A stretch of 64,000 nucleotides of DNA from an uncultured Bacteroidales bacterium (GTDB taxonomy: Bacteria; Bacteroidota; Bacteroidia; Bacteroidales; VadinHA17). Below the pieces are notes generated by a model that worked only from the letters and a program-made list of their open reading frames with translations, had not been told where the DNA came from and searched no databases. The stretch is taken from the NCBI GenBank assembly GCA_963838215.1, contig CAWIQG010000003.1, forward strand, positions 320,240-384,239. The letters run 5' to 3'. This document shows, in pieces, positions 2,134 to 18,956 of this stretch. The translations under genes and the position numbers were made by a program. Every line of letters begins with the position of its first letter. Position 1 is the stretch's first letter.

Positions 2134-3297
2134 ATGGATACTAAAAACTTAACAGACAAGTTTTATGAAAAATACGGGAACAGGAACGAGAAACCTGTTC
2201 TTTTTTTCTCACCGGGAAGAGTTAATCTTATTGGTGAACATACTGATTATAACAGTGGATTTGTTTTTCCCTGTGCCTTAAATTATGGAACTTATCTTCT
2301 TATTCGTAAGATCAAGGGTAACACTCTTAAATTCAGCACAATCAACTTCAATGACGATTTACAAACCGAATTAAAAGGATTATTTGTTAACACAAGTAAA
2401 AAATGGATAAACTATCCGCTTGGAGTAATAAATGAGTTTCTGAAAAAAGGAATAGAATTAAGCGGACTTGAATTCCTTTATTATGGTGATGTTCCAAATG
2501 GAGCAGGTCTATCCTCTTCAGCTTCAATTGAAATGGTTACTGCAGTTGCTCTGAATGATTTTTTTGGCACAGGACTGAGCACTCTAGAACTGGTAAAAAT
2601 GAGTCAGAAAGCTGAAAATGAATTTGTAGGTATGAACTGTGGAATTATGGATCAGTTTGCAGTTGGTTTTGGTAAAAAAGATCATGCTATTTTCCTGAAT
2701 TGCGACACTTTATTTTTTGAAAACGTTCCTGTAATCCTTAATGGTTATTCCCTGATAATTACAAATACAAATAAGAGAAGAGGCCTTACCGATTCAAAAT
2801 ATAATGAAAGACGCTCAGAATGTGATAAAGCTGTTGAATTACTTCAGGCTTATAAGCCTATCCGCAATCTGAGTGAACTTAATACAGGCGAAATTCACAT
2901 TCTGGAAAAATATATTAAAGACCCGGTCGTAAGGAAAAGAGCAAAACATGTTATCAGTGAGAACGGAAGAGTAGTTGAAGCAGTGAAAGTACTGAAAGAC
3001 AATAATATAATTCGTTTTGGAGAGCTAATGAACCAATCTCACGACTCGCTTAAAGATGACTATGAAGTTACAGGCAATGAGCTCGATACGTTAGTTTATG
3101 AGGGGAGAAAGCTTCCCGGAGTTATTGGTACTCGTATGACCGGAGCCGGCTTTGGCGGATGCACTGTAAGTATAGTCAAAAAAACTGCCTCAGAGAACTT
3201 CATGTCCGGACTCTCTGAAGCTTACAGGAAAAAAATAGGTCTTATACCCGATTTTTACCGGCCGGAGATTGGAAATGGTGCAGGAAAAATAGAATAA
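2134..3297 (+). CDS. galK: galactokinase
   Basis: Galactokinase signature GRVNLIGEHTDYNSGFVFPCA and GHMP kinase motif PNGAGLSSSASIE. The ORF track starts at TTG 2128; ATG 2134 is more likely. Confidence 0.9.
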   Translation: MDTKNLTDKFYEKYGNRNEKPVLFFSPGRVNLIGEHTDYNSGFVFPCALNYGTYLLIRKIKGNTLKFSTINFNDDLQTELKGLFVNTSKKWINYPLGVINEFLKKGIELSGLEFLYYGDVPNGAGLSSSASIEMVTAVALNDFFGTGLSTLELVKMSQKAENEFVGMNCGIMDQFAVGFGKKDHAIFLNCDTLFFENVPVILNGYSLIITNTNKRRGLTDSKYNERRSECDKAVELLQAYKPIRNLSELNTGEIHILEKYIKDPVVRKRAKHVISENGRVVEAVKVLKDNNIIRFGELMNQSHDSLKDDYEVTGNELDTLVYEGRKLPGVIGTRMTGAGFGGCTVSIVKKTASENFMSGLSEAYRKKIGLIPDFYRPEIGNGAGKIE

Positions 3298-3452
3298 GAC
3301 AACTTGCTTAAACGCAAGCCCTTCTTTCTATGGTGCCTTCAATGACTGCGTTTTATATACGACGAAGTCTAATGTCATAATATAGATAATTCAGCTATTT
3401 TTTTCTTATTAGAAAAATATGTCGTATTTTTAGGAAAGATTCAAAAGAAGAT

Positions 3453-3662
3453 GTGATAATGTCTAAAACGGTTAAAATATTAAAGTTAATTTCCATCTTT
3501 TTTCTAATTGCGATATTTACAGCCTGTGCACCCTCAAGAAAGAATACCTACTTTGCAAAAAGGAAGAAAAGTTCCCAGGTAAATGCTTCACAACTGGGAA
3601 GAAACAAATTCTATTTTTCTTCAGGCTATCAGAAGAAACTGAATAAAAATTATAAAAAATAG
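3453..3662 (+). CDS. small putative lipoprotein (hypothetical)
   Basis: 69 aa with a hydrophobic signal and a lipobox-like IFTAC, followed by a basic tail. No recognisable family. Confidence 0.35.
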   Translation: MIMSKTVKILKLISIFFLIAIFTACAPSRKNTYFAKRKKSSQVNASQLGRNKFYFSSGYQKKLNKNYKK

Positions 3663-3674
3663 AAATCTGAATTT

Positions 3675-4481
3675 TTATTCATTACAAAAAAAACTCAGCC
3701 CATCGTATGCAAGCATAATTTCAGAAGGTAATTCTTTTGATACTTCAGCATGCAAGCCCATCTGGTGGCTTATATGAGTAATGAACGCTTTTTTTGGTGA
3801 AATCTCTCTTATAAAATCGACGGCTTCTCTTAAACTAAAATGAGAAATGTGCTTTTCTTTTCTGAGTGCATTAATTATCAGGTACTTAACACCAAACAGT
3901 TTTTCTTTACTCTCTTCAGGAATGTAATTAGCATCAGTAATATATGCAAAACTACCAACACGGAATCCATAAACAGGAAGCCTGTAATGGAAAACTCTTA
4001 TTGGAATTATCTGAATCCCTTTAATATCGAAACTATGTTCAGGAATATCATTAAGTCTCATTTTAGGAATTCCGGGATATTGATATTCTGAAAATACATA
4101 GGAATATTCTTTTTTAATACACTTCTGCACCCTTTCTTCTGCATAAATATCTATTGCATCCTGACTTTTATAGTTGAAGGCCCTTACATCATCCATACCC
4201 GATATATGATCCTTATGCTCATGTGTCAATAGAATTGAATCAAGCTTCATGACATGCTCACTGAGCATCTGCTGGCGGAAATCAGGACCTGCATCAAAAA
4301 GTAATGTAGTCTCATCCGTTTCAAGAAGAAGAGAAGTTCTTAATCTCTTATCATGTGAATCGGTCGAAAGACAAGTATTACATTCGCAGGCTATAACTGG
4401 TACACCCTGCGATGTTCCTGTACCCAGAAAAGTAATTTTCACTTTAGAAATATTTCCTGACAAACCTATATTAAAAATCAA
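3675..4481 (-). CDS. MBL-fold metallo-hydrolase
   Basis: 268 aa with the HxHxDH motif LTHEHKDHISG and later His/Asp ligands typical of the metallo-beta-lactamase fold. Confidence 0.8.
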   Translation of the reverse strand: MIFNIGLSGNISKVKITFLGTGTSQGVPVIACECNTCLSTDSHDKRLRTSLLLETDETTLLFDAGPDFRQQMLSEHVMKLDSILLTHEHKDHISGMDDVRAFNYKSQDAIDIYAEERVQKCIKKEYSYVFSEYQYPGIPKMRLNDIPEHSFDIKGIQIIPIRVFHYRLPVYGFRVGSFAYITDANYIPEESKEKLFGVKYLIINALRKEKHISHFSLREAVDFIREISPKKAFITHISHQMGLHAEVSKELPSEIMLAYDGLSFFCNE

Positions 4482-4564
4482 TAATAGGCAACAGGCGGGT
4501 AATTTTTTATCGATACAATCTACAGTAGTATATTTGCTATATTTGAGTGAACAAACTTAACGAT

Positions 4565-5263
4565 ATGACGGGCAGGATTTATCTTATACCTGTAACTTTA
4601 GGAGGTGATGATTTTTTAAAAGTGATCCCCGAGAAAGTAATTAGTCAGACCAGACTTCTGCGATACTTTATTGTTGAGGATATAAGAAGCGCCAGAAGGT
4701 TCTTAAGACTCATTGACAACGCGTTTCCCATAGATGATACAATCTTCTTTGAATTAAATGAACATACTGGGGAATCAGATATAACACATTATCTTGAACC
4801 GGTTTTTGAAGGATCGGATATTGGAGTTATGAGTGAAGCAGGGCTCCCTTGCATTGCTGATCCGGGTGCCATGATTACCGCTTTAGCCCATCAAAAGAAT
4901 ATCACAGTTACTCCATTATCCGGACCTTCCTCAATCGTGCTGGCTCTTATTTCTTCAGGACTGAACGGACAAAATTTTACATTTAACGGGTATCTTCCTG
5001 TCAAACCCGCTGAACGTTCCGCAAAACTCAAAGAACTTGAAAGAAAGAGTGATGATGGATATGCACAGATTTTTATGGAGACTCCATACCGGAACCAGAA
5101 AATGCTGGAATCAATAATAAAGACATGTCACGATGATACAAAACTTTGTATTGCAACTGACATAACTCTTCCTACAGAAGTGATAAAAACCATGAAAGTC
5201 TCGGAATGGAAAAGAGATTTGCCGATGTTAAATGATAAACTTGTGGTCTTTGTAATGCAGTAA
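4565..5263 (+). CDS. SAM-dependent methyltransferase, tetrapyrrole-methylase fold (RsmI-like)
   Basis: N-terminus MTGRIYLIPVTLGG and the segment GVMSEAGLPCIADPG...PLSGPSS resemble the TP-methylase/RsmI family. ATG 4565 is preferred over GTG 4547. Confidence 0.55.
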   Translation: MTGRIYLIPVTLGGDDFLKVIPEKVISQTRLLRYFIVEDIRSARRFLRLIDNAFPIDDTIFFELNEHTGESDITHYLEPVFEGSDIGVMSEAGLPCIADPGAMITALAHQKNITVTPLSGPSSIVLALISSGLNGQNFTFNGYLPVKPAERSAKLKELERKSDDGYAQIFMETPYRNQKMLESIIKTCHDDTKLCIATDITLPTEVIKTMKVSEWKRDLPMLNDKLVVFVMQ

Positions 5264-5265
5264 TT

Positions 5266-5763
5266 CTACTCCCCGGAGCCAGATTTTACATGAACAAGAT
5301 AAACATCATATACTAATGGTGTATAACCTGGTATTGTAAGATATCCTACGGGCCCATAAGCCAGCTTCGAAGGAATGAGGAACATAGCTTTCCCTCCGGC
5401 TTTCATATACGTGATCCCTTCATCAAATCCGGCAATCATATATCCTTCAGCTACAGGAAATATCAGAGTATCGCTTGTCCCGACATTTGTGCCAATAATA
5501 GTCCCGTCAGTGGTTTTAACAGTATATTCCACATAAGCAGTATCACCCATGACAGGTGTGCGTCCAGTACCTACCTGAACATCATAATAATACAAACCGC
5601 TGGGTTTCAAAACAAAATTAATGCTGCTATTACTGCTAAGGAATGTCTTTATCTTAGCGTTCTCTTCCTTTTCATATTTCGCAGAAGGATCGCATGACCA
5701 GAGTGAAATCAGCAAAAGCACCGTCAGTAGAGCAAGTATTCCGGAATTGTATTTTTTTATCAT
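5266..5763 (-). CDS. FKBP-type peptidyl-prolyl cis-trans isomerase, lipoprotein
   Basis: Signal peptide with Cys (LISLWSC). FKBP core GYMIAGFDEGITYMKAGGKAMFLIPSKLAYG. Confidence 0.8.
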   Translation of the reverse strand: MIKKYNSGILALLTVLLLISLWSCDPSAKYEKEENAKIKTFLSSNSSINFVLKPSGLYYYDVQVGTGRTPVMGDTAYVEYTVKTTDGTIIGTNVGTSDTLIFPVAEGYMIAGFDEGITYMKAGGKAMFLIPSKLAYGPVGYLTIPGYTPLVYDVYLVHVKSGSGE

Positions 5764-5826
5764 AGATTTAATTTTTAAGTTTTAGGTACGATCAATAGTT
5801 TAACAACGCAAAAACTATTCCAAATA

Positions 5827-6378
5827 TTATTTGGTCCGCAAGATATTAACATTATAAACAATTATGGCTCTTGAAGGGACCATTTTTCTGTCTCCAATCA
5901 GCCCATATCCTAAAAATGGTGGTATAATAAAAACAGCTTCTGCCCCCGGTTTGAGCATCCGCAGACCTTCATTCAATCCTTGTTCCATTTCACTCTTTCC
6001 TAAAAAAAGTTCCTTTGGACCCAGGTCTTTGGATGAATAACATTTTGTTCCGTCAAGAAGCGAACACTCGTAATCAAAGGTTATTTTATCGCTTTCAACG
6101 AACTTATTCCCTTCTCCCTCCTTTAAAATCTGGTACCACAGACCTGTGGGAGATTCGACCATTTTAAGATTTTTCCGTTCTATATAATTCAATATTCTTT
6201 CCCTGTCTTTCTGTACAAAATACCTGTTCAGATCGGCCATCTCATTTTTTCCCGGTCCAGGTCTTGAAATGGTTTTCTCAGAACTGTTTTTGCATGAAAT
6301 GATTACGAACAATAAGATCGTAAATAAAATATATCTTATTGTCAGATAATTACATCTTATCTTCAAATTTCCAGACAT
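5827..6378 (-). CDS. FKBP-type peptidyl-prolyl cis-trans isomerase, lipoprotein
   Basis: Lipobox FVIISC. FKBP core LNEGLRMLKPGAEAVFIIPPFLGYG. Overlaps the stop of the upstream DHH gene by 29 nt. Confidence 0.8.
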   Translation of the reverse strand: MSGNLKIRCNYLTIRYILFTILLFVIISCKNSSEKTISRPGPGKNEMADLNRYFVQKDRERILNYIERKNLKMVESPTGLWYQILKEGEGNKFVESDKITFDYECSLLDGTKCYSSKDLGPKELFLGKSEMEQGLNEGLRMLKPGAEAVFIIPPFLGYGLIGDRKMVPSRAIIVYNVNILRTK

Positions 6379-7375
6379 TCTCTTTAAGGGCTTTCAGGAA
6401 GTAGTCGATTGTTTTGTCTAATGTACCAGGATATTCGCCACCGGAAGCATTCAGATGGCCCCCACCGGAAAAATATTTTGCGGCAAATTCATTTGAAGGG
6501 AATTGACCTTTTGACCGGAAAGAAAGTTTTATAAACCCATCTTTTTCAATAAACAGGGCTGAGAAATTTATTCCTCTGATAGATAAAGGCAAATTAACAA
6601 ATCCTTCGGTATCTCCTTTAACGTGGTTAAAATCTTTTAAATCATTTTTTGTGAGAAAAATATAAGCGGTTTTATATTCCGGAATCACAACCATTCGCTT
6701 ATTAAGAGCATATCCCTGAAGCCTGATCCTGCCGGAAGAGAAATTATTGTAGATCAGGTTCAGTATTTTTTCCTTTTCAATCCCTGTATCAAGGAGGTCA
6801 GCAACAATACGGAATGTTCTTGAAGAATAGGACCCATGTTCAAAGTTGCCGGTATCTGTAATGATCCCCACATAAAGAGCTTCTGCGTAAGGTCTGCTCA
6901 TAAACTGGTCTTCATTCATTTCACATAAAAGTTCATGAATAAGTTCTGATGTGGAACATTTCGAAGGTTCAGAAATGATCAGATCTGCAAAATTCGCCGG
7001 ATTAAGGTGATGATCAATAACAACTTTCTTCGCATGGGATGCTCTGACTAACTCCTCTGCTTCTCCCAGCCTGTTCGACTGATTAAAATCGAGCATGATG
7101 ATCAGATCAGCCTTTTCAATCAGTTTACTGCATTTTTTTCTCTCTTTTATAAAAATATGTATCAGATCGGCTCCATCCATCCATTTCAGAAACTCCTGCA
7201 GGTAATTTGGTGCCATCATTCCGACATTTCTGCCTCGATTTTTGAGATAATGATATAGCGCTAACTGTGAGCCTATTGCATCACCGTCAGGATTAAGGTG
7301 AGCGATCAGAAGTATATTCTCAGAAGAGGAAAAATGTTTTGATAATTCTTTTGTATATTTGGATAAATCTATCAC
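6350..7375 (-). CDS. DHH-family phosphoesterase (NrnA-like oligoribonuclease/pAp phosphatase)
   Basis: DHH motifs HLNPDGDAIGS, DFNQ, VIDHH and DHHA1 GGGH. GTG start. Confidence 0.8.
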   Translation of the reverse strand: MIDLSKYTKELSKHFSSSENILLIAHLNPDGDAIGSQLALYHYLKNRGRNVGMMAPNYLQEFLKWMDGADLIHIFIKERKKCSKLIEKADLIIMLDFNQSNRLGEAEELVRASHAKKVVIDHHLNPANFADLIISEPSKCSTSELIHELLCEMNEDQFMSRPYAEALYVGIITDTGNFEHGSYSSRTFRIVADLLDTGIEKEKILNLIYNNFSSGRIRLQGYALNKRMVVIPEYKTAYIFLTKNDLKDFNHVKGDTEGFVNLPLSIRGINFSALFIEKDGFIKLSFRSKGQFPSNEFAAKYFSGGGHLNASGGEYPGTLDKTIDYFLKALKENVWKFEDKM

Positions 7376-9817: not shown

Positions 9818-9902
9818 TTCGCCCGCTATGGGGCTTTATGGGTAGCTTTCTTTATAAGCAGGGCGATGCCCATGCTTTAAAATAAATCAGGCCTACGGCC
9901 TG
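9818..9902. repeat. REP-like GC-rich hairpin cluster, copy a (modules M1-M2-M3)
   Basis: TTCGCCCGCTATGGGGCTT ... CAGGGCGATGCCCATG ... CAGGCCTACGGCCTG. Three short GC hairpins in an AT-rich background, with the same module order as copies at 12761 and 18871. Confidence 0.7.
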
Positions 9903-9913
9903 ATTTATTCCCT

Positions 9914-12009
9914 GTTGTGAATTGCTTTGGCTTCGCCGGGCTTCGCTTCGCTCCGGTTCAGTTTGTATCTTTGATATATTGAGCACAACATCGGCTCATG
10001 AGACTGCCGGATGGACTTCGTTGTGAATTGCTTTGGCTTCGCCGAGCTCCGCTTCGCTCCGGTTCAGTTTGTATCTTTGATATATTGAGCACAACGTTTG
10101 GTTTGTACTGCCATCGGTATTCAATGTTGTGAATTGCTTTCAGTTTGTATCTTTGATATATTGAGCACAACGCCTGTTGTTCCCTGTGAGCCACTCATGG
10201 CGTTGTGAATTGCTTTCAGTTTGTATCTTTGATATATTGAGCACAACTTTAATATATAGATAAAATCTACATATTGTGTTGTGAATTGCTTTCAGTTTGT
10301 ATCTTTGATATATTGAGCACAACTCTCCGGGAAATTGTACTTCCCAGTTTCAAGTTGTGAATTGCTTTCAGTTTGTATCTTTGATATATTGAGCACAACA
10401 ATCCGGGACAAAGAATGCTGCACTTTTTGGTTGTGAATTGCTTTCAGTTTGTATCTTTGATATATTGAGCACAACGGTTTCTAGAAGATGTTACGTTAAG
10501 TTTCGGCTGTTGTGAATTGCTTTCAGTTTGTATCTTTGATATATTGAGCACAACGCTGATTCCAAAGGAAGTACACGTTCATCTGTTGTGAATTGCTTTC
10601 AGTTTGTATCTTTGATATATTGAGCACAACAGCAGTTATGGAAGGTAATGCAGTTAGACTGTTGTGAATTGCTTTCAGTTTGTATCTTTGATATATTGAG
10701 CACAACTATTATATTCAGCATACCTTGGAGCATAACTGTTGTGAATTGCTTTCAGTTTGTATCTTTGATATATTGAGCACAACTCTATTGGTGGTTGTAC
10801 AACACCAGCACAGGTTGTGAATTGCTTTCAGTTTGTATCTTTGATATATTGAGCACAACTATGGTATCACTATCCCCGATGATAAAGTAGTTGTGAATTG
10901 CTTTCAGTTTGTATCTTTGATATATTGAGCACAACACTAGGAAGCTTATGAAACTGAGTTCCTTGGTTGTGAATTGCTTTCAGTTTGTATCTTTGATATA
11001 TTGAGCACAACCGTCAATGCGTAGGAAGTGCTTCATAGCGCGTTGTGAATTGCTTTCAGTTTGTATCTTTGATATATTGAGCACAACTCCGTCAGCGCTT
11101 ACGTGCAGCTGCACAACAGGTTGTGAATTGCTTTCAGTTTGTATCTTTGATATATTGAGCACAACTATATATTCAGCATACCTTGGAGCATAACAGTTGT
11201 GAATTGCTTTCAGTTTGTATCTTTGATATATTGAGCACAACAGCATTTGCAACTGGATTACTAGAATACGTAGTTGTGAATTGCTTTCAGTTTGTATCTT
11301 TGATATATTGAGCACAACTCAGTTGATGATTATATCCGAGGTGCAATGGTTGTGAATTGCTTTCAGTTTGTATCTTTGATATATTGAGCACAACTTTTAA
11401 ATTCATTTTCATTATTTCCGAATTGTTGTGAATTGCTTTCAGTTTGTATCTTTGATATATTGAGCACAACATGCTGGTGGAAGATCTAAGTTGCATTGAT
11501 TGTTGTGAATTGCTTTCAGTTTGTATCTTTGATATATTGAGCACAACTGAACTATCTCGTTACACGAATGATATGATAGTTGTGAATTGCTTTCAGTTTG
11601 TATCTTTGATATATTGAGCACAACTTTACACGATACAAGCAAAGGTAAGATATAGTTGTGAATTGCTTTCAGTTTGTATCTTTGATATATTGAGCACAAC
11701 TGATGGTGCGGCTTTAAATAACGATAGCTACGTTGTGAATTGCTTTCAGTTTGTATCTTTGATATATTGAGCACAACTGATGTGGCTATTGGTATGATGC
11801 GACGATATGTTGTGAATTGCTTTCAGTTTGTATCTTTGATATATTGAGCACAACGCACACAACCCTGACTCCTTCGACCTCGCAGTTGTGAATTGCTTTC
11901 AGTTTGTATCTTTGATATATTGAGCACAACTATGCAACATATAGGATCAGTTATTTCAAATTAGTTGTGAATTGCTTTCAGTTTGTATCTTTGATATATT
12001 GAGCACAAC
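9914..12009 (+). CRISPR. CRISPR array, type II-C-like: 27 repeats and 26 spacers
   Basis: The 46-nt repeat GTTGTGAATTGCTTTCAGTTTGTATCTTTGATATATTGAGCACAAC occurs 25 times. Repeats 1-2 (9914-9989, 10020-10095) are 76 nt because of a 30-nt insertion. Spacers are 30-33 nt. The plus-strand orientation is inferred from the tracrRNA anti-repeats and the terminator at 12085. Confidence 0.97.
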
Positions 12010-12084
12010 ATACCAGGTATTAAGTGGCTTAAAACGTGTTCTTTAATATCAAAAGCAGAAAATAAAAAATTGTGCTCTGAAATT

Positions 12085-12114
12085 GCTCCGGAATAACTAC
12101 TTCGGAGCTTTTTT
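12085..12114 (+). terminator. rho-independent terminator downstream of the CRISPR array
   Basis: GCTCCGGA-ATAACTAC-TTCGGAGC gives an 8-bp stem, followed by TTTTTT. Confidence 0.7.
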
Positions 12115-12133
12115 CATTCCTGTGGCCAGGTAA

Positions 12134-12222
12134 TTCGCCCCGTCAGGGGCAGAATAGATAAAACAGGGCAACGCCCTGTCTATAATGAAAACATATCAAT
12201 GTAGCCCCGTAGAGGGCGAAAT
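12134..12222. repeat. REP-like hairpin cluster, copy b
   Basis: TTCGCCCCGTCAGGGGC, CAGGGCAACGCCCTG (perfect hairpin) and an inverted M1, GTAGCCCCGTAGAGGGCGAAAT. Confidence 0.65.
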
Positions 12223-12303
12223 AAAATTCATATTTACGTAAAATTCCGGTAAAAGAATCATCAGTTAAAAATGATTTTGTAAATTAGTGAAAAACGAATA
12301 ATT

Positions 12304-12750
12304 ATGTCGCAGTCTTTTGTCCAATTCTATGCCCATATTGTTTTTCATACAAAGAACAATATGCAACTAATCAGACCAGAAATCGAGGTTGAATTGTATT
12401 CATACCTTGGGGGTATTCTCAAAAACTATAAATCTAATCCGATCCAGATAGGCGGAACATCTGACCACATCCATATTCTGTGTACTTTACCAAAAACTAT
12501 GGCACCTGCTGACCTGGTGGAGGAGATTAAAAAGAGTTCTTCAAAGTGGATAAAAACAAAGGGAGAAAAATACCTGAACTTCTACTGGCAGGATGGTTAT
12601 GGAGGATTCTCTGTAAGCAGTTCAGGGTTGGAAGCTGTTAAGAAGTACATATTGACTCAGAAAGAGCATCATAAGAAGCTATCAGTAATAGATGAATACA
12701 AGAATCTTCTGGATGCGTACGGTATCCATTATGAAGATAGGTACCTCTGA
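12304..12750 (+). CDS. IS200/IS605-family Y1 transposase-like protein (REP-associated tyrosine transposase, RAYT-like)
   Basis: 148 aa. N-terminus YAHIVFHTKNN, HUH motif DHIHIL, FYWQDGYGGFSV, and a C-terminal Tyr region KKYILTQKEHHKK. Confidence 0.8.
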   Translation: MSQSFVQFYAHIVFHTKNNMQLIRPEIEVELYSYLGGILKNYKSNPIQIGGTSDHIHILCTLPKTMAPADLVEEIKKSSSKWIKTKGEKYLNFYWQDGYGGFSVSSSGLEAVKKYILTQKEHHKKLSVIDEYKNLLDAYGIHYEDRYL

Positions 12751-12760
12751 TCTTCTTCTA

Positions 12761-12870
12761 TTGCGCCCACTACGGGGCTTAATGTACAGGGTTGTGCAGT
12801 CGTCGGGTTGCACCCGACTTTCATCTATGTAAGGCCTACGGTCTTACCTGCCTTAGGGTAAAACCCTTTT
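12761..12870. repeat. REP-like hairpin cluster, copy c (M1-M2-M3 plus an extra hairpin)
   Basis: TTGCGCCCACTACGGGGCTT ... GTCGGGTTGCACCCGAC ... AAGGCCTACGGTCTT ... AGGGTAAAACCCT. Confidence 0.7.
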
Positions 12871-12888
12871 AAAATGGTGTGAAAAGAG

Positions 12889-13230
12889 TTAGAACATCTC
12901 AAGTTGCTGGGGTGTTTCCGGACGTTTTGCCGGGTCTCTGCTACGAAAAAACTCCATCATACCGAACTGTTTATCGGTAAGCGTAAAGATTATTATCTCT
13001 CCTTTCGGAGCAAGAAATGACCTGACCCTTTTAATATGAACATCAGCATTTTCCCGGCTGTTACAGTGTCGTACATAAATTGAATATTGCAGCATCGTAA
13101 AACCGTCTTTCTGCAAAGACTTCCTGAATATTGTGTAGTTCTTCCGATCTTTTTTAGTTTCAGTCGGAAGATCAAAAAATACGAAAGCCCACATTATCCT
13201 GTATTGATTTAAACGAGATAGTTCTTCCAT
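12889..13230 (-). CDS. cas2: CRISPR-associated endoribonuclease Cas2
   Basis: 113 aa with the typical type II Cas2 N-terminus RIMWAFVFFDLPTETKKDRKNYTIFRKSLQKDGFTMLQYSIY. Lies directly downstream of cas1. Confidence 0.9.
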   Translation of the reverse strand: MEELSRLNQYRIMWAFVFFDLPTETKKDRKNYTIFRKSLQKDGFTMLQYSIYVRHCNSRENADVHIKRVRSFLAPKGEIIIFTLTDKQFGMMEFFRSRDPAKRPETPQQLEMF

Positions 13231-13247
13231 ATTCGTAAATCAGTTAA

Positions 13248-14153
13248 TCAGCTCATAACCGGATACATAATTTTCCGGGTCTCCCCGTCAAAACATGAAG
13301 CCAGAGAAGCCGTGGTACGTTGCACACCTACCATTAAGGGGCTGCTTTTCCCATCAATAACAACATCAATGACAGGAATCTGCAAAAGTCTTTTTTTGAT
13401 CTCAGGAGACAATTCTTCCAATTCCGGGATTTCCTGAATTATATCAAGCACCAGGGAATCAACATAGGGTCTGAATGGTTCCATAATATCGTCCGCGAGG
13501 CAATATGGATTATATTTATTCCGGTGATGAATTCCAATTGACGGAAAAAGACCTGATGCAATCAGTGACCGTGCAACTATTGCCCTAAGAACTGCATATC
13601 CATAGTTAAGAAGGTTATTTGGTGGTTCACCAAAACGGTGCCTCAAGAAAATTGCACCGCTGAAAAGATTATCCCAATAATATGCCGCAGCCCTGCCTTC
13701 GACATTTCCGGAATCTCCGCTTTTAACATCAGTAAGATAGAAATCCATTTTTTTCGTGTCAATTCCGACTCTTTTCAAGAGAGCTGCCTGGTTTTCAATT
13801 TTTGAAGTGACAGTCTGCTGCCAGAGATTCTTCATAAGAGGTTGTGATGCTTCAAGCTGAGAATACAGTTTTTCTGTAAATGCATGATGCGAAAACATGG
13901 GGAGCATTAAACCATAAGGCAAATGAGAAGTATCACAGCTTAATATGGCTGAATTATTTTCATTCAGTGCCATTATCAAAGCGTTACTGATAATTATCTG
14001 GGGATTGTCAAGTATGACCAGTCCTATGTCTTCAACCGGCACAGAATTATCTTCCTTACTTTCTTCTATAGGAAAACTGACCATCAACTGCATATCCTTT
14101 TTCCTGAGGGTACATGGATTACCGAAGTATAGTGTTCTTTTAATCATTGGCAT
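13248..14153 (-). CDS. cas1: CRISPR-associated endonuclease Cas1 (type II)
   Basis: 301 aa with Cas1 motifs GNVEGRAAAYYW, LNYGYAVLRAIVARSL, GIHHRNKYNPYCLADDIMEPFRP. Sits between cas9 and cas2. Confidence 0.93.
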   Translation of the reverse strand: MPMIKRTLYFGNPCTLRKKDMQLMVSFPIEESKEDNSVPVEDIGLVILDNPQIIISNALIMALNENNSAILSCDTSHLPYGLMLPMFSHHAFTEKLYSQLEASQPLMKNLWQQTVTSKIENQAALLKRVGIDTKKMDFYLTDVKSGDSGNVEGRAAAYYWDNLFSGAIFLRHRFGEPPNNLLNYGYAVLRAIVARSLIASGLFPSIGIHHRNKYNPYCLADDIMEPFRPYVDSLVLDIIQEIPELEELSPEIKKRLLQIPVIDVVIDGKSSPLMVGVQRTTASLASCFDGETRKIMYPVMS

Positions 14154-14243
14154 AAAGAGTTAAATTTCATGAAATGAAAAAACTATTATTACAACCGATG
14201 AGATTCATTTCTTAGCTCTAAAATACTGACGGAAAGGTTGATT

Positions 14244-17200
14244 TTATTTGAAGATAATTTCTCCGTCAGGCTTGATTTCAAAGTCTTTACCTTCAATGGC
14301 ACAAGTAAAACAACTTGCAACAAGACATAAACGGGCTTGATACTTGTTGGGGTCAAAGCTATTATCTCCATTCCCAAGTTTTTCGTTTGGTCTAGCTTCG
14401 ATGTGGTTTTGTAAATATATAAAAGGAGTACCCATTTCATTAAACTTATACACTCTGTAAATTCTTTTTAATAAATCTTGTTTTGGCATATCTTTCAATT
14501 CGTTGATATCATTTGTATAAAAAATTACTTTTGTCCCAACTTTTATTATCGCATCAACAGGGATTTCTGTCTTGATTTTACCCCGACCAACTAAAATAGT
14601 TTTATAGTAGTTATCATTCCTAATATCTTCAGTATATTTAAGTTTGAGCATTGCTAGTTCATATAATCCTACCAATCTAAATGATCTTACCGTTTTGTCA
14701 CCTGTGGTTTTTTCATAATAGAGACAAAGTGTATTATCTTCATTTTGTGCATAAACAAAATGCTTATACTCTTTATCTTTAGATAGAAATGTATGCTTTC
14801 TAATTGGAATTGCTTTATTTGGTGTGAGATAACCTCGACCAGCAACAACTTTACATCTGACTTTCTTAATATAAGCTTTACCAGACGGAAATGGGATAGG
14901 TTCTAGTTTTGCTTGATCGAAAGTTTTCCCGGATTCCATCCTCTTTTCGAGTTCGCTTCTGATAATTTCACGAACTGCCTTATCAACTATATTTTTGCAG
15001 TCATTAATACTTGTAAATGTAGATACCGGATAACGCTCTACCAAACATAGTTGATCCTCAATTTTTATGGCTCCTAATAAACTCTCTTTATGAAGTTGCC
15101 CTCTGATAGAATCCCCTTTAGCAATTAAGGGAATTTTTTTGCCCTCTTTATCTACCTTATAATTCCACTTACCATCAGTATCTATAGATTTTACATATTG
15201 TTGAATGCCACGTTTCCGTATTTTTTTTATTGCTGGGATAAGAGTACTGTTTTTCGCCTGGTAGTTTATTAATACCTCATTATGAATAGATAAGACATAA
15301 TTAGCATTGAATCCATCCCAATCCATTACTCTTTCATGGTAGGTTTCATTTGATTCATTATCTTTAAACTCATTATATTTCATTAATATTTGGTCTCTAA
15401 TAGCTGCCGGCGGTATTAAAGTAAGAATTGCAGCATCAATTGCATGATGGCTATGCTTTTCTCTGTCTTTTTTCTCAACTTTTGGTTGAATCTTATATAT
15501 TTCTCTGAAGGAGGCAGTAATACTTCCTTTTTGGACTTCAACGCTTTTGAAGATCGTTCTTAAAAAAGGTAATGCGTATTTTGTTATTACCTGAGTGTCT
15601 TTTAATTGACTATTACGCCAACCGGATTTATACTCCTTACAGGTAAATGTATCTAACTTTTTACGCCAATAATCCAATTCAAATCTGATTAAATGTCTAC
15701 GTTGAATACAAGCATCCTTAATCTCTTTAGTTGAAGCAAACTTGGTTTTGATTTTCCATTCTTCTAATAATTTCTCTAAATGCTCAACTTTTTCTTCCAT
15801 GAATTTTAAACGAGGTTTTATTGGGGAATATTCTTTCCCGTTTATCATCGCATCGTTTTCGTAATTAGAACATTCACTAGGTAAATGTTTACCTTTTATG
15901 TTTATGTTATAATCTATTTCAGCGATTGTTAGATTTTTTAACTCATTATCAAAACTCATGCTTGCAGGAATAGTATGTTCAAAATTGAACTTTGAACCAT
16001 CAAATAATTCAGTACAATTTATAGTTTTTCCCGTATATAAACATCGTTGATTTTGTTCCATCCATAAACGATATTTGGTAATTATCTTGCTATCCTCAGG
16101 GTTGATAATCATTTTTGGATTGGCTTCAGCTATTTCGCGAATCTTTACTTTATATGAATCATTTTCTTTCTCCCTCTGTCTTTGCCAGGTTTCAATTGCC
16201 TTACGCATATTTGTGTCGTTTAATTCGCGTGCTATTTCAATGACCACACGTGTATTTTCATCAATCTTACCTGACTTGAGTAGATAATTCATTAGTTTCT
16301 TAAGTTCGTGCATTGTACGTAGTGCCATTGGGTTTTTAAAACCTCTACTAATAGGACGAGGGTCTCCCAATAGTTTAGTCGTGAAACCATCTTTCTGAAC
16401 ATTTGGATACTTTTTTATGAATTCATCCACTTTTTCTACTGGAATATAGGATTCTTTCCCATTTTGGATAAATTTTTGGTAAACAGCAGCATCAGTATAA
16501 GTCTCTTGTTCAGAAGGGTGCCATAAGTATTTAATGTTTTCGGAAGGAATATTGTAATATTTTCGCAAACCCTCAAAGATTTTATCGTGTAACCTGCTTG
16601 GTTTTAAAAATAGCGTTTCTTTTTTCGCATTAATTGGCTTTCTTAAGAACGAAAGATATGCTTTCTCAATATTTTGATAAATTAAGCTCCGTTTTTCATC
16701 ATTGATTTTTCCCAACCATGTTTTATTTCCAAAAACTTCAATTATTTTATTAGAAATATCCTTTTTGTCTTCATTATCTAATTGATAATCTTTAGCCATT
16801 CCAAAACGATACTCACTATTCAGTTGATCACTTATCAAACTATTGATAACCATATTGGTATTTATTTCTGTTTTATGATCTTTAATTATTTCTGAAATAG
16901 TTTCCACAATCTTATTGGCATCATCAAGAGTTATCTCGTTATTATTGACAACTTTATGCAGATTAGCCAGATAAACGGATTCGCTATACATAAAGCCTTT
17001 TTGAAGGTAAGGCAATATTTTCTTTATTGCTGAAAGACTTAAGGTTGCATATCCTTGTTGTAGATTTATTTTTGAAAATCTCTTTGCAGATTCCTCATCC
17101 AATTTTAACTTTTGCAAACCAAATTCTTTTAATTTCTCATTACTATCAAAACTGAACAGGACATGCCAAATATCACCAATAGAATAGTTACATATTTCTG

Positions 17201-18386
17201 GTTTATTTTTATTTTGCAGAATCTCATTCCATCCAAAATCTTCTTTCCAGTTATTGCCTAATATTTTTTCAAAATTGTTTAATAAGTTGCATGAAACCAC
17301 TTTTGTATCATTCGAGAATTTCGATTCAATTATGCCTCCTACCTTTTGTACTTGCTTGAGTATTTTAGTGAGCTTAATATCTCTTGATGAATTATAAAAT
17401 AAAGGGTAAATTTCATCATGAAGATATTTAATCTTGTCAACATTTTCAGGAAGTTTGATTTTAAGGTTATTTATAAACACCCACGTCCTAAATTCTTCAT
17501 ACATTGGGTGGCTAATAGGACAGCGAGGTTTATTTTTCTCAAAGGTACAGATTCCTACTAATCCTTTCTGACTTCGTAATGGTCGTTGCCAGATAATTGC
17601 TTTCCATAGTCTTGAATAATCATCTTCTGTTATTTTCTGAATTCGACAAATCTCTGTTAGTTCACGCTCATAATCTGTTCTCAGATTGTACCTTTTTCTT
17701 ATTCTCCCTCTCGAATCTTTTTGAATATGATAAAGAGCTGCACCCAATGTTTTGTATTTTTCAATATATGGAGCAATATCATCATGCCCCTGAGTTCCAG
17801 TTTTTTTACTTCCTTCCAAAATGGTCTTAGCCTCATTCGAATCATCAGCTCTTCCCCTGTATCCTCGTCGTTGAACTAATTGGTAAAAAATCCTTCCAAT
17901 AATATGTGGATTTTTAACAAATACGCTCCTGTCCTTTTCATTCTCACTAATTGCTTTGACTCGAAATATGTAATGACTCTCACCTGGTTCTGCATTAAAT
18001 AAATGAAAATCTGGTTTCAAATCTCCATCAAAATCAAACCTTAGCCATTGAATAAATTTTTCAGATTGAGGATATTCTCTTCCTTTCCCGATTGAGTAAT
18101 GTCTCCATGAATTTAATTCATCGATAGTGAGCGGACATAAGTTTCTTTCAATTAGAAACTCCAATAACTCCCATTTTCTGTATTTCTCTGCTTGATAGTT
18201 TCTCCTTTTACCTCTACTCTCAGTTCTTTTTTTTACAATTGGTATTTCGACCCCTTTTTCTTCACCTACTCCTTTCTCAAAGGTGAGTACACCTTTGTCA
18301 ATAATTTGGTTCTTTGAAACTGAAGAATCTCTTATTGCCCATCCAATTGAGTTACTCCCTAAATCTATTCCTATAATTTTTTCCAT
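14244..18386 (-). CDS. cas9: CRISPR-associated endonuclease Cas9 (type II-C, long Bacteroidetes-like form)
   Basis: 1380 aa. RuvC-I IGIDLGSNSIGWAI, Arg-rich bridge helix RTESRGKRRNYQAEKYRK, RuvC-II VVIEIARE, HNH CLYTGKTI...FEHTIPASMSFDNELKNL...N, and RuvC-III HHAIDAAIL. No csn2 or cas4 is present nearby. Confidence 0.97.
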   Translation of the reverse strand: MEKIIGIDLGSNSIGWAIRDSSVSKNQIIDKGVLTFEKGVGEEKGVEIPIVKKRTESRGKRRNYQAEKYRKWELLEFLIERNLCPLTIDELNSWRHYSIGKGREYPQSEKFIQWLRFDFDGDLKPDFHLFNAEPGESHYIFRVKAISENEKDRSVFVKNPHIIGRIFYQLVQRRGYRGRADDSNEAKTILEGSKKTGTQGHDDIAPYIEKYKTLGAALYHIQKDSRGRIRKRYNLRTDYERELTEICRIQKITEDDYSRLWKAIIWQRPLRSQKGLVGICTFEKNKPRCPISHPMYEEFRTWVFINNLKIKLPENVDKIKYLHDEIYPLFYNSSRDIKLTKILKQVQKVGGIIESKFSNDTKVVSCNLLNNFEKILGNNWKEDFGWNEILQNKNKPEICNYSIGDIWHVLFSFDSNEKLKEFGLQKLKLDEESAKRFSKINLQQGYATLSLSAIKKILPYLQKGFMYSESVYLANLHKVVNNNEITLDDANKIVETISEIIKDHKTEINTNMVINSLISDQLNSEYRFGMAKDYQLDNEDKKDISNKIIEVFGNKTWLGKINDEKRSLIYQNIEKAYLSFLRKPINAKKETLFLKPSRLHDKIFEGLRKYYNIPSENIKYLWHPSEQETYTDAAVYQKFIQNGKESYIPVEKVDEFIKKYPNVQKDGFTTKLLGDPRPISRGFKNPMALRTMHELKKLMNYLLKSGKIDENTRVVIEIARELNDTNMRKAIETWQRQREKENDSYKVKIREIAEANPKMIINPEDSKIITKYRLWMEQNQRCLYTGKTINCTELFDGSKFNFEHTIPASMSFDNELKNLTIAEIDYNINIKGKHLPSECSNYENDAMINGKEYSPIKPRLKFMEEKVEHLEKLLEEWKIKTKFASTKEIKDACIQRRHLIRFELDYWRKKLDTFTCKEYKSGWRNSQLKDTQVITKYALPFLRTIFKSVEVQKGSITASFREIYKIQPKVEKKDREKHSHHAIDAAILTLIPPAAIRDQILMKYNEFKDNESNETYHERVMDWDGFNANYVLSIHNEVLINYQAKNSTLIPAIKKIRKRGIQQYVKSIDTDGKWNYKVDKEGKKIPLIAKGDSIRGQLHKESLLGAIKIEDQLCLVERYPVSTFTSINDCKNIVDKAVREIIRSELEKRMESGKTFDQAKLEPIPFPSGKAYIKKVRCKVVAGRGYLTPNKAIPIRKHTFLSKDKEYKHFVYAQNEDNTLCLYYEKTTGDKTVRSFRLVGLYELAMLKLKYTEDIRNDNYYKTILVGRGKIKTEIPVDAIIKVGTKVIFYTNDINELKDMPKQDLLKRIYRVYKFNEMGTPFIYLQNHIEARPNEKLGNGDNSFDPNKYQARLCLVASCFTCAIEGKDFEIKPDGEIIFK

Positions 18387-18440
18387 ATGTTTGATTAAAA
18401 TTGTTATTAATGTCTTATCTTAAAAAAAATGTTATACCTT

Positions 18441-18526
18441 TACAACATTGAAAGCTTTTCACAATAAGGCTATAAGCCGAAGAAAATCTTAAACCCTGCG
18501 TACTCCGTGGGGTTTTTATTTTTTCT
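18441..18526 (+). ncRNA. tracrRNA candidate A (cas9-proximal, divergent from cas9)
   Basis: Anti-repeat TACAACATTGAAAGCTTTTCACAAT is complementary to repeat nt 1-24, with a 2-nt internal mismatch. It is followed by the nexus AAGGCTATAAGCC and the terminator AAACCCTGCG-TACTC-CGTGGGGTTT plus a U-tract. Ends are approximate. Confidence 0.6.
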
Positions 18527-18589
18527 TTCATTGATTAACGCCCATCCAATGCTGTTGTGATTAAAATTAAGTCCAAGTGCTGTTCCCAT
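18527..18589 (-). pseudogene. decayed 5' stub of a second (older) cas9 gene
   Basis: The minus strand reads ATG GGA ACA GCA CTT GGA CTT AAT TTT AAT CAC AAC AGC ATT GGA TGG GCG TTA ATC AAT GAA, i.e. MGTALGLNFNHNSIGWALINE. This matches the Cas9 RuvC-I consensus (LGLDLGTNSIGWA), with the catalytic Asp replaced by Asn. The frame then runs into the tracr-A terminator. Confidence 0.7.
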
Positions 18590-18620
18590 TTGAATATTTT
18601 TTAATCTTTTTCGTACATCT

Positions 18621-18707
18621 GTTCCAACTGAAGCAATTCACAATAAGGATTATTCCGTTGTGAAAACATTTAGGCTGCCCTCGTCCTTCAATACGGGGGC
18701 ATTTTTT
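18621..18707 (+). ncRNA. tracrRNA candidate B (cas9-distal)
   Basis: Anti-repeat CCAACTGAAGCAATTCACAAT is complementary to repeat nt 1-14 and, past a 1-nt bulge, to nt 16-20. It is followed by the nexus AAGGATTATTCCG (compare S. pyogenes AAGGCUAGUCCG) and the terminator GCCCTCGT-CCTTCAAT-ACGGGGGC plus ATTTTTT. Ends are approximate. Confidence 0.65.
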
Positions 18708-18870
18708 CACATAATCCGTTATTTTGCAGAACAAACTAAGTTAAACAAAATAATTTAATCAGAACTTTCTAAAATGAATAAAATATTCTGCAGATGCAGT
18801 AAATGATATACCAACCGCTGCTTTATCAGGATGATATAAGTAAAAACAAGTTCATTATATACCTTATTAT

Positions 18871-18956
18871 TTCGCCCCTACGGGGCTTATTGAATTTAAG
18901 GTTGGTAGTTACCGGGCGTTGCACCCGAGTTTCAAAATATTTCAGGCCTGCGGCCT
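18871..18956. repeat. REP-like hairpin cluster, copy d (M1-M2-M3)
   Basis: TTCGCCCCTACGGGGCTT ... ACCGGGCGTTGCACCCGAGT ... CAGGCCTGCGGCCT. Same orientation and module order as copies a and c. Confidence 0.7.

Follow-up and report, generated by a model that had tools for sequence, protein, structure and literature searches.

The adaptation and effector modules of CRISPR–Cas systems are established to evolve semi-independently and to be shuffled among loci, and escape from anti-CRISPRs has been proposed as a driver (Koonin & Makarova 2019, PMC6452270). For CRISPR–Cas9 loci, rare recombination has been proposed, together with a call for the 'observation of ... recombination events' (Faure et al. 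2018, PMC6546382), and a few loci with an alternative trans-activating CRISPR RNA (tracrRNA) have been described (Dooley et al. 2020, 10.1101/2020.09.02.279885). Here we analysed a type II-C locus in a 64,000-nucleotide (nt) stretch of DNA, hereafter the window, from an uncultured Bacteroidales bacterium (VadinHA17; assembly GCA_963838215.1, contig CAWIQG010000003.1, positions 320,240 to 384,239). Between two tracrRNA genes, tracr-A and tracr-B, the minus strand of the window carries a 21-codon fragment of a cas9 gene (18527..18589). We consider it very probable that this stub is the scar left when a cas9 of one clade, called B-type below, was replaced by a cassette consisting of tracr-A and a cas9 of another clade, the A-type, which is now resident.

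The locus is ordered cas9, tracr-A, stub and tracr-B, with both tracrRNA genes on the plus strand and the stub occupying the interval between them. On the minus strand, 18589..18527 reads ATG GGA ACA GCA CTT GGA CTT AAT TTT AAT CAC AAC AGC ATT GGA TGG GCG TTA ATC AAT GAA, which translates to MGTALGLNFNHNSIGWALINE; an earlier reading of the locus made without database searches (the sequence-only reading) had quoted both exactly, had given the same layout and had recognized a Cas9 RuvC-I N-terminus in which the catalytic Asp and its neighbours are mutated. Translation, hidden Markov model (HMM) search, tblastn and alignment to a related locus all identified the stub as a pseudogene fragment, the relic of the first 21 codons of an old B-type cas9. 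The motif N[ST][IVLC]G[WYF] occurs at two sites only in the six-frame translation of the 64 kb, the N-terminus of the resident Cas9 and the stub. A clade-specific HMM of 32 positions, built from 89 Cas9 N-termini adjoining tracr-B-type RNAs and run against 2994 six-frame segments of the window, gave 32.3 bits for the resident Cas9 (E=1e-8) and 29.1 bits for the stub (E=9e-8), with 5.7 bits (E=1.9) for the next best segment. By tblastn, residues 1-25/26 of the B-type Cas9s of two loci (L087 and L127) align to 18589-18512/18515 at 50-52% identity. Generic profiles from NCBIfam and Pfam gave no match on the 39-amino-acid (aa) open reading frame (ORF) that contains the stub; the fragment is too short and too mutated for them, so that the clade-specific HMM was needed.

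The stub keeps the start codon, LGL and NSIGWAL, and reads NFNH instead of DLGT at the catalytic Asp and the next three residues. Its RuvC-I motif is homologous to that of Cas9 but is not a functional motif, and the stub is a gene relic, not a Cas9, the full protein being absent. As the sequence-only reading had seen, the frame runs on into the tracr-A terminator: it goes on as RKNKNPTEYAGFKIFFGL and stops at a TAG that ends at 18473, 39 codons in all, having crossed the terminator hairpin. This open frame past codon 21 is accidental. Homology stops at codon 21, and neither tblastn nor a C-terminal HMM found another B-type cas9 fragment within the 64 kb. The 5′ untranslated region (UTR) of the old cas9 (18590..18621, minus strand) is decayed as well: homologous to, but diverged from, the corresponding sequences of four related loci (L136, L144, L142 and L145), it departs at 5 of the 23 columns that are invariant among relatives in which the old gene was not replaced.

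The two tracrRNA genes share one plan, an anti-repeat, CACAAUAAGG, a nexus hairpin and an intrinsic terminator. In tracr-A (18438..18527, plus strand) the nexus is GGCUAUAAGCC and the terminator lies at 18491-18515, followed by a T-run; in tracr-B (18620..18707, plus strand) the nexus is GGAUUAUUCC and the terminator hairpin lies at 18676-18701, again with a T-run. Their predicted folds reach -23.2 kcal/mol (z=-4.2) for tracr-A and -22.3 kcal/mol (z=-3.5) for tracr-B. The tracr-B anti-repeat pairs with repeat positions 1-22 of the local array with one bulged T, and tracr-A, too, pairs with this repeat family, apart from a 2-nt mismatch that is conserved. Repeat pairing, nexus, terminator and adjacency to cas9 in many loci mark both as predicted tracrRNAs; an Rfam scan of 9-20 kb returned no tracrRNA family and only sub-threshold CRISPR-DR49 matches on the repeats.

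The two genes belong with different Cas9 clades. When metagenome contigs were scanned for the nexus of tracr-B, ATAAGGATTAYTYYGTTGTGAAA, at least 120 loci came up, and among those listed at least 89 carry a full, divergent cas9 that starts 70-305 nt past the nexus motif; tracr-B is therefore the normal tracrRNA of a separate and very common clade, the B-type. The N-terminus of the Cas9s encoded beside tracr-B is MKKILGLDLG[TS].SIGWAL[IV] (for example MKRILGLDLGTNSIGWALINE in L036). In the window the stub starts 77 nt from the tracr-B nexus motif, exactly where the gene of this clade begins, and it matches B-type N-termini at up to 13/17 aa and 36/51 nt and A-type N-termini at a maximum of 10/17 aa.

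For the A-type, 15 loci (L001-L015) with relatives of the resident Cas9, about 32-63% identical to it, were taken from species-representative genomes, all of them Bacteroidota/Chitinophagales-type metagenome-assembled genomes (MAGs). A tracr-A-type gene with near-invariant nexus and terminator lies upstream of every cas9 in L001-L014, mostly about 50-60 nt away (about 215 nt in L006), and the most distant locus, L015, has a diverged version. In A-clade loci the repeat starts GTTGTGATTTGCTTTCAA and the anti-repeat reads TTGAAAGCTTATCACAA, which leaves positions 9-10 of the repeat in a T.T/T.T internal mismatch that is conserved; tracr-A of the window has the same 2-nt T.T mismatch and, in addition, a covarying position 8 (A in the repeat, U in the anti-repeat). 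This conservation upstream of A-clade cas9 genes, the shared mismatch and the covariation identify tracr-A as belonging with the A-type clade of the resident Cas9 and as adapted to the local array. The A-type N-terminus is MEKI[IL]G[IL]DLG[ST]NSIGWAIR. The resident Cas9 is 48-59% identical to those of L001-L008, L012 and L013 and 32-40% identical to those of L009, L011 and L015, whereas with B-type Cas9s it shares only about 22-25% local identity.

Comparison contigs for the locus as a whole were found by protein search with the window Cas1, which returned relatives up to 90% identical. The sequence-only reading had supposed an unreplaced ancestor with tracr-B next to a full cas9, and two contigs show this state. 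The first, L136 (JGI Ga0373625_0017363; Cas1 90% identical in aa to that of the window), is ordered REP-like (repetitive extragenic palindrome-like) flank, tracr-B, cas9, cas1, cas2, Y1 transposase and first repeat, and its cas9 is a full B-type gene (1388 aa, MKKILGLDLGTNSIGWALVNEANDEKEKSS) whose product shares 72% identity with the B-type Cas9 of L087. The second, L144, has tracr-B, a full cas9, cas1, cas2, the Y1 transposase gene and the same repeat. In both, the full-length cas9 after tracr-B starts MKKILGLDLGTNSIGWALVNE and tracr-B is about 96% identical to that of the window. Presumably this B-type state resembles the loci of Flavobacterium, Capnocytophaga and Riemerella. Alignment of the window to L136 by blastn gave two collinear blocks, 18888..18609 (L136 3500..3782, 80% overall) and 14147..11961 (L136 8001..10198, 82%), the latter beginning exactly at the cas1 ATG, and no alignment between them; a targeted alignment matched the stub to codons 1-21 of the L136 cas9, codon for codon. 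From the collinear flanks and the stub alignment it follows that window 18526..14148 (tracr-A, the A-type cas9 and a 96-nt gap) stands in place of codon 22 to the stop of the L136 cas9 and a short pre-cas1 spacer. Collinear relatives thus retain the displaced gene, and both breakpoints are bounded within tens of nucleotides, the left at about 18526/18527 and the right within 14148-14243.

At the left junction the old frame (…GCG TTA ATC AAT GAA AG) is followed by AAAAAATAAAAACCCC, which is complementary to the terminator tail of tracr-A. On this side the incoming DNA ends with the 3′ end of tracr-A, at its terminator T-run, where the sequence-only reading had put the boundary, and the A-side boundary is again the tracr-A T-run in five other tandem loci (L072, L012, L050, L010 and L006); on the B side these five are cut variably, at codon ~27, within the anti-repeat, within the nexus or beyond the nexus. 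A few codons past the left breakpoint the L136 cas9 is A-rich (GAT GAA AAA GAA AAA TCA; GAAAAAGAAAAA), which makes microhomology-mediated illegitimate recombination the likely mechanism. On the right, each 100-nt bin of the window cas1 resembles the L136 gene more (75-90%) than any A-clade cas1 (48-67%), and a crossover inside cas1 that would have made a mosaic gene was rejected. This places the right junction in the gap of 96 nt that separates the cas9 stop from the cas1 ATG (14148..14243, minus strand). The sequence-only reading had suggested, as one example, the surroundings of the REP clusters at 12.1-12.9 kb, but that region, with its Y1 transposase gene and REP-like repeats, is collinear with the unreplaced L136, and this placement was rejected too. 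Within the gap, no 3′ relic of the old cas9 was found by tblastn with three full B-type Cas9s or by an HMM of 53 C-termini from ORFs of B-type loci (a few of which are not Cas9), and Smith-Waterman comparison, with shuffles, to the 3′ ends of L136 and L144 and to A-clade cas9-downstream sequence gave nothing significant.

The effector and adaptation-module phylogenies are incongruent. Between the window and L136, Cas1 is 90% identical and Cas9 only about 22-24% (local identity), and the comparison of cas1/cas2 with cas9 trees that the sequence-only reading had proposed ended in disagreement between them. The B-type loci L087 and L049 have a Cas1 65% identical to that of the window, and they and L050 have a Cas2 73-78% identical, whereas A-clade loci with Cas9s that are 48-59% identical reach only 48-54% in Cas1, and Cas2 of A-clade loci reaches 59-66%; the closest Cas9 among the species-representative genomes (59%) adjoins a Cas1 that is only 52% identical. 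In a neighbour-joining tree of Cas1, the window grouped with the B-type L087 at 94% bootstrap and, with L050 and the B-type L049 added, at 96%.

The exchange has recurred. Within the close Cas1 family (83-91% pairwise identity) we found four Cas9 types with between-type identities of 20-38%: type A in the window and in L147, L148 and L149 (1378-1380 aa), type A′ in L138/L139 and L140/L141 (1372-1379 aa), type B1 in L136 and L144 (1388-1395 aa) and type B2 in L142, L145 and L143 (about 1240 aa). Four types on Cas1 proteins this similar mean that effector turnover is fast relative to cas1-cas2 divergence. The A′ loci L138 and L140 carry tracr-B, tracr-A′ and cas9A′, with left junctions that are different again, and the N-terminal HMM detected no stub in the 130-nt interval of L140. 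B1 and B2 loci have a common tracr-B and a near-identical 5′ UTR. The B2 Cas9s (L142 1072-4794, L145 69-3788 and L143 1-3027) are compact, at about 1240 aa, and about 35% identical to B1; the cas1 genes of their loci are 84-91% identical to those of B1 loci. The shared tracr-B, 5′ UTR and close cas1 imply that effectors were swapped by a crossover at the conserved start of cas9 or close to it. On L072, an unrelated metagenome contig whose cas9 is A′-type, an independent stub (ATGAAAAAGATATTAGGTCTGTACTTAGACACAACAGTATCGGTAGGTACTGGTAAATGAAGTCGAGAAAGG) lies between tracr-B and tracr-A′, 59/72 nt identical to a B-type 5′ end and with indels that break the frame; over all fetched loci the N-terminal HMM found a further stub only there, and weakly (12 bits; frameshifted). 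Remnants of tracr-B also stand beside tracr-A in 3 of the 15 A-clade loci (L006, L010 and L012), which had been found without reference to tracr-B.

The checks that the sequence-only reading had called for all spoke for its interpretation, and these observations allow us to propose how the locus arose. The ancestor would have been a canonical Bacteroidota type II-C locus with tracr-B, a divergent B-type cas9, cas1, cas2 and an array. A self-contained cassette of tracr-A and an unrelated A-type cas9 would then have taken the place of everything from about codon 22 of the old cas9 to the end of that gene, leaving tracr-B, the old 5′ UTR, the 21-codon stub, cas1, cas2 and the array in place. The left join, of old coding sequence to the tracr-A T-run, was probably made by microhomology-mediated illegitimate recombination, and the right join would have fallen within the 96 nt before the cas1 ATG. 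The resident Cas1–Cas2 would keep extending the array for the incoming Cas9, and this Cas9 can use the resident array since pairing with the repeat family GTTGTGA(A/T)TTGCTTTCA is common to the anti-repeats of the A-, A′- and B-types.

Several points weigh against this reading. The cluster of changes at the DLGT motif could be partly older than the swap. Because neither a 3′ relic of the old cas9 nor donor-type downstream sequence was recognized in the 96-nt gap, the right junction is bounded and not pinpointed. Outside this locus family we found no donor locus with a Cas9 above 71% identity, so that only the recipient side tells how much DNA was transferred. Every locus used for comparison is a metagenome contig or a MAG, and any single one could be a chimeric assembly; the architecture, though, repeats across independent samples (L147, L148 and L149; L138 and L139; L140 and L141).

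The direction of transfer could also be the reverse: a natively A-type locus would have received, upstream of tracr-A, an inserted fragment with tracr-B and the first codons of a foreign cas9. In the tree, the Cas1 proteins of A-type loci mingle with those of B-type loci and form no clean 'A-type Cas1' clade, which leaves some room for this polarity. Yet both flanks of the window locus, the REP-like flank with tracr-B on one side and cas1, cas2, the Y1 transposase gene and the repeat on the other, are collinear with the B-type L136 and L144; loci whose Cas1/Cas2 are 83-91% identical to those of the window all carry tracr-B; and it is the A side that always ends at the tracr-A terminator, the cut on the B side falling at varying points. 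We regard the reverse polarity as improbable and favour the replacement of a B-type cas9.

The sister lineage of the window shows what has happened to the scar since. The closest relatives by Cas9 (86% identity) are L147, L148 and L149, from three samples, and L147 aligns to window 18757..12887 in one block at 86%; its upstream genes are those of L136 (K_trans and CstA). L147 shares the junction of the window and the GAT to AAT (Asp to Asn) change, and in its copy of the stub neither the frame nor the NSIGW motif survives. Identity between the two is 48/53 (91%) in the flank adjoining tracr-B, 74/77 (96%) in the tracr-B core, 21/42 (50%) in the distal anti-repeat plus old 5′ UTR, 34/63 (54%) in the stub, 82/90 (91%) in tracr-A and 48% in the cas9–cas1 gap; at four-fold degenerate sites it is 66% pooled, and 73% for cas9A (n=332), 47% for cas1 (n=112) and 60% for cas2. 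Judged by these identities, the stub and the cas9–cas1 gap behave as neutral sequence; the stub is without function and is decaying neutrally. At the amino-acid level, Cas9 (86%) and Cas1 (91%) of L147 and the window stand in the reverse order of their four-fold degenerate sites (73% versus 47%, Fisher P=2e-6): either a second allelic exchange has given cas9A a more recent coalescence than cas1, or cas9A evolves under very different constraints.

A functional role for the 39-codon ORF or the 63 nt, as a small protein, an upstream ORF or a spacer between RNA genes, is accordingly hard to credit, and we think it very unlikely. It is true that the ORF is open for its 39 codons and called as a gene in another assembly (L146), and that the NSIGWALINE half is unchanged with respect to L036; but frame and motif are destroyed in L147, where identity is below that of synonymous sites, the L072 stub is frameshifted and other tandem loci lack any stub. 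The degenerate L147 copy also means that the 63 nt are not an unrelated segment conserved across A-type loci, an outcome that the sequence-only reading had named as fatal to its proposal. A local tandem duplication, by which the stub and tracr-B would be decayed paralogues of the resident cas9 5′ end and tracr-A, could draw on CACAAUAAGG and the overall architecture that both tracrRNAs share; it is refuted by L136, with a full B-type gene in the position of the stub, the stub is closer to B-type N-termini than to the resident one (7/17 aa and 28/51 nt), and hundreds of B-type loci have a tracrRNA almost the same as tracr-B, so that we give this origin next to no credence. Chance resemblance of AT-rich intergenic sequence to a Cas9-like peptide, for which only the shortness of the stub speaks, is equally negligible, being refuted by the HMM margin (E=9e-8 against 1.9), by a strand, a start codon and a distance from tracr-B that are all correct, and by the nucleotide-level alignment to L136.

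The sequence-only reading had both the stub and its divergent tracrRNA simply left behind by the swap. This stands for the stub, a decaying remnant, but not for tracr-B, whose core is 96% conserved. Relative to synonymous sites that conservation is far higher (binomial P about 1e-10), and at columns invariant in unreplaced relatives the window differs at 1 of 81 in tracr-B versus 10 of 37 in the stub (Fisher P=3e-5); on these two comparisons the tracr-B core appears to have been under purifying selection after the loss of its cas9. Only the core is kept, since L147 is without the distal anti-repeat and the presumed promoter box. That promoter is proposed from plus-strand boxes within the old 5′ UTR, 5′ of tracr-B: TTTG at 18589-18592 and TACATCTG at 18614-18621 resemble the Bacteroidetes TTTG/TAnnTTTG consensus, and unreplaced loci have the same box (TACATTTG). 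Alternatively, tracr-B may have been conserved through repeated recombinational refreshing from B-type loci, or through a constraint on the opposite strand. We put forward tentatively, as a possibility somewhat short of probable, that the tracrRNA of the displaced system is not a fossil and that, with a core (~12 nt of proximal anti-repeat together with nexus and terminator) held at this level, such loci may run on two different tracrRNAs; in a broader form, tracrRNA–cas9 cassettes may be exchangeable alleles that repeatedly invade Bacteroidota II-C loci, the repeat families being cross-compatible. Candidate roles for tracr-B are use by the incoming Cas9 alongside tracr-A, service to a B-type Cas9 encoded elsewhere in the genome, and a regulatory or crRNA (CRISPR RNA)-titrating function.

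Variants of both tracrRNA neighbourhoods occur among the other loci. In many metagenome loci with an intact tracr-B, cas9 is damaged or missing: it is 5′-truncated in L081, has the RuvC-I region deleted in L108 and has Trp changed to a stop within the motif in L123. In L026 tracr-B is followed directly by cas1, and orphan tracr-B genes occur among L019, L020, L045, L067, L091 and L129; some of all these cases may be assembly errors. In L005 (7235-9349) and L013 (14122-16447) an A-type cas9 is followed directly by the CRISPR array with no cas1 or cas2 between, an arrangement that would be a minimal tracrRNA–cas9–array unit. L006 (8885-9700) has a full tracr-B beside a nucleotidyltransferase gene, and a second, degenerate copy of the 5′ end of that gene with a 3′ fragment of tracr-B abutting tracr-A, which points to a local duplication around the old tracrRNA.

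The rest of the locus is that of a type II-C system, with cas9-cas1-cas2, an array, a tracrRNA and NCBIfam matches to Cas9, cas1_NMENI and Cas2. The resident A-type cas9 (14244..18386, minus strand) is intact and encodes 1380 aa (TIGR01865, 315 bits; Pfam HNH_4 and RuvC_III). From the old locus come cas1 (13248..14147, minus strand; TIGR03639, cas1_NMENI), which starts with MIKRT at 14147 and has an in-frame ATG upstream at 14153, and cas2 (12889..13230, minus strand; TIGR01573). Between 12.9 and 18.4 kb, NCBIfam and the ORF list gave no additional cas ORF, csn2 and cas4 being absent. An IS200/Y1-transposase-like (RAYT-like) ORF (12304..12750, plus strand) lies between the array and cas2. The array, also of the old locus (9914..12010, crRNA direction on the plus strand), has 25 identical copies of the 46-nt repeat GTTGTGAATTGCTTTCAGTTTGTATCTTTGATATATTGAGCACAAC, which matches the first repeat of L136 at 45/46 nt (about 98%), plus two terminal repeats with a 30-nt insert. 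On the other side of tracr-B, the flank of the old locus (18708..18888) contains REP-like palindromes and a conserved element of about 50 nt and is collinear with L136 and L147. This element, just past the tracr-B terminator (18708-18760, with TGCAGAACAAACTAAGTTAAACAAAATAAT on the plus strand), is 88-91% kept among the window, L147 and L136, far above other non-coding DNA of the locus, and could be the promoter of the cas operon or part of a longer tracr-B transcript.

In the array, the 30-nt insertion of the terminal repeats (9914-9989 and 10020-10095, at the end distal to cas2) is GC-rich (GGCTTCGCCGGGCTTCGCTTCGCTCCGGT in each) and interrupts the portion of the repeat to which the anti-repeat of the tracrRNA pairs, so placed that an 'extraneous' crRNA might be disabled. 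Positions 23-30 of every repeat (10126-12009) read TATCTTTG, a perfect match to TAnnTTTG, the consensus of the Bacteroidetes -7 promoter box, which would fit II-C-style transcription of each crRNA from within the preceding repeat, on the plus strand. In related loci, the anti-repeats of both A- and B-type tracrRNAs have similar boxes before them, and the boxes of the two window tracrRNAs, TACCTTTA and TACATCTG, have one mismatch each to the consensus. Two spacers, 10707-10737 and 11166-11195, are nearly identical with a one-base offset (TATTATATTCAGCATACCTTGGAGCATAACT and TATATATTCAGCATACCTTGGAGCATAACA), suggesting either two acquisitions from one target or a partial duplication of the array.

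REP-like palindromes (GGCCTACGGCC and similar) at 9875-9901, 12818-12844 and 18930-18956 bracket the whole CRISPR–Cas locus. A Y1 transposase gene adjoins the cas genes in L136, L137, L140, L143 and L148 (downstream of cas2) and in L142 (upstream of cas9), which makes the transposase gene older than the cas9 swap. The chromosomal neighbours in the window differ from the K_trans and CstA genes of L136 and L147, and the whole locus may therefore have moved. L146 (ENA ERZ25039473), another public assembly, from the same strain or one very close to it, has its cas9 at 2770-6910 split into four ORFs; with 144 gap openings against the window over 11 kb, long-read assembly indels are the most likely cause rather than real pseudogenization. 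Its tracr-B/stub/tracr-A segment is identical to that of the window except for one homopolymer base.

Module shuffling has been accepted mainly from conflicting gene trees, and the window locus adds a physical record for type II. The unit of exchange is the tracrRNA gene plus cas9, ending at the tracrRNA terminator, and the record of the event is visible in its breakpoints, in the unreplaced allele and in a decaying scar common to sister lineages. Fast turnover of effectors would fit an arms race with effector-specific anti-CRISPRs, and escape from these may be the selective reason for the exchange. The locus also points to natural sets of Cas9 and tracrRNA that work on the same repeat, and raises the question of guide-RNA cross-compatibility: can the A-type Cas9 work with tracr-B? 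What the locus has beyond effector-module shuffling as already known, which is seen here at nucleotide level, is a retained second tracrRNA as an unexplained extra. A limited literature search returned no described cas9 relic between two tracrRNAs, no nucleotide-level junctions and no case of several Cas9 alleles combined with a single close family of Cas1.

Canonical Bacteroidota type II-C loci (for example PMC10309648, PMC10521337 and PMC5006608) have a divergent tracrRNA upstream of cas9-cas1-cas2 and 46-47-nt repeats starting GTTGTGA, and the B-type state of L136 fits this description; the window differs in having two tandem tracrRNA genes of different families and an effector of another Cas9 clade. 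With the tracr-L/scaRNA type of gene (summarised in 10.1101/2023.03.03.530964) the window shares a second tracr-related RNA gene beside cas9 that appears to be kept by selection, but tracr-B is without a spacer-like segment, has no target recognized in the cas9 promoter, at which no search was aimed, and is the tracrRNA of another Cas9 clade, so that a regulatory role in the manner of tracr-L/scaRNA is, by this analogy, only a possibility. The recombination proposed by Faure et al. and the alternative tracrRNAs of Dooley et al. come without junctions or relics, and the second tracrRNA of the window is the partner of the displaced cas9, not a newly evolved one. A further likeness is to module shuffling (PMC6452270), in which cas1-cas2 and the array are likewise joined to an unrelated effector and the phylogenies of Cas1 and effector disagree; there the case is made from trees, and the window adds to it a stub, bounded breakpoints, the unreplaced allele and four effector alleles on one adaptation module.

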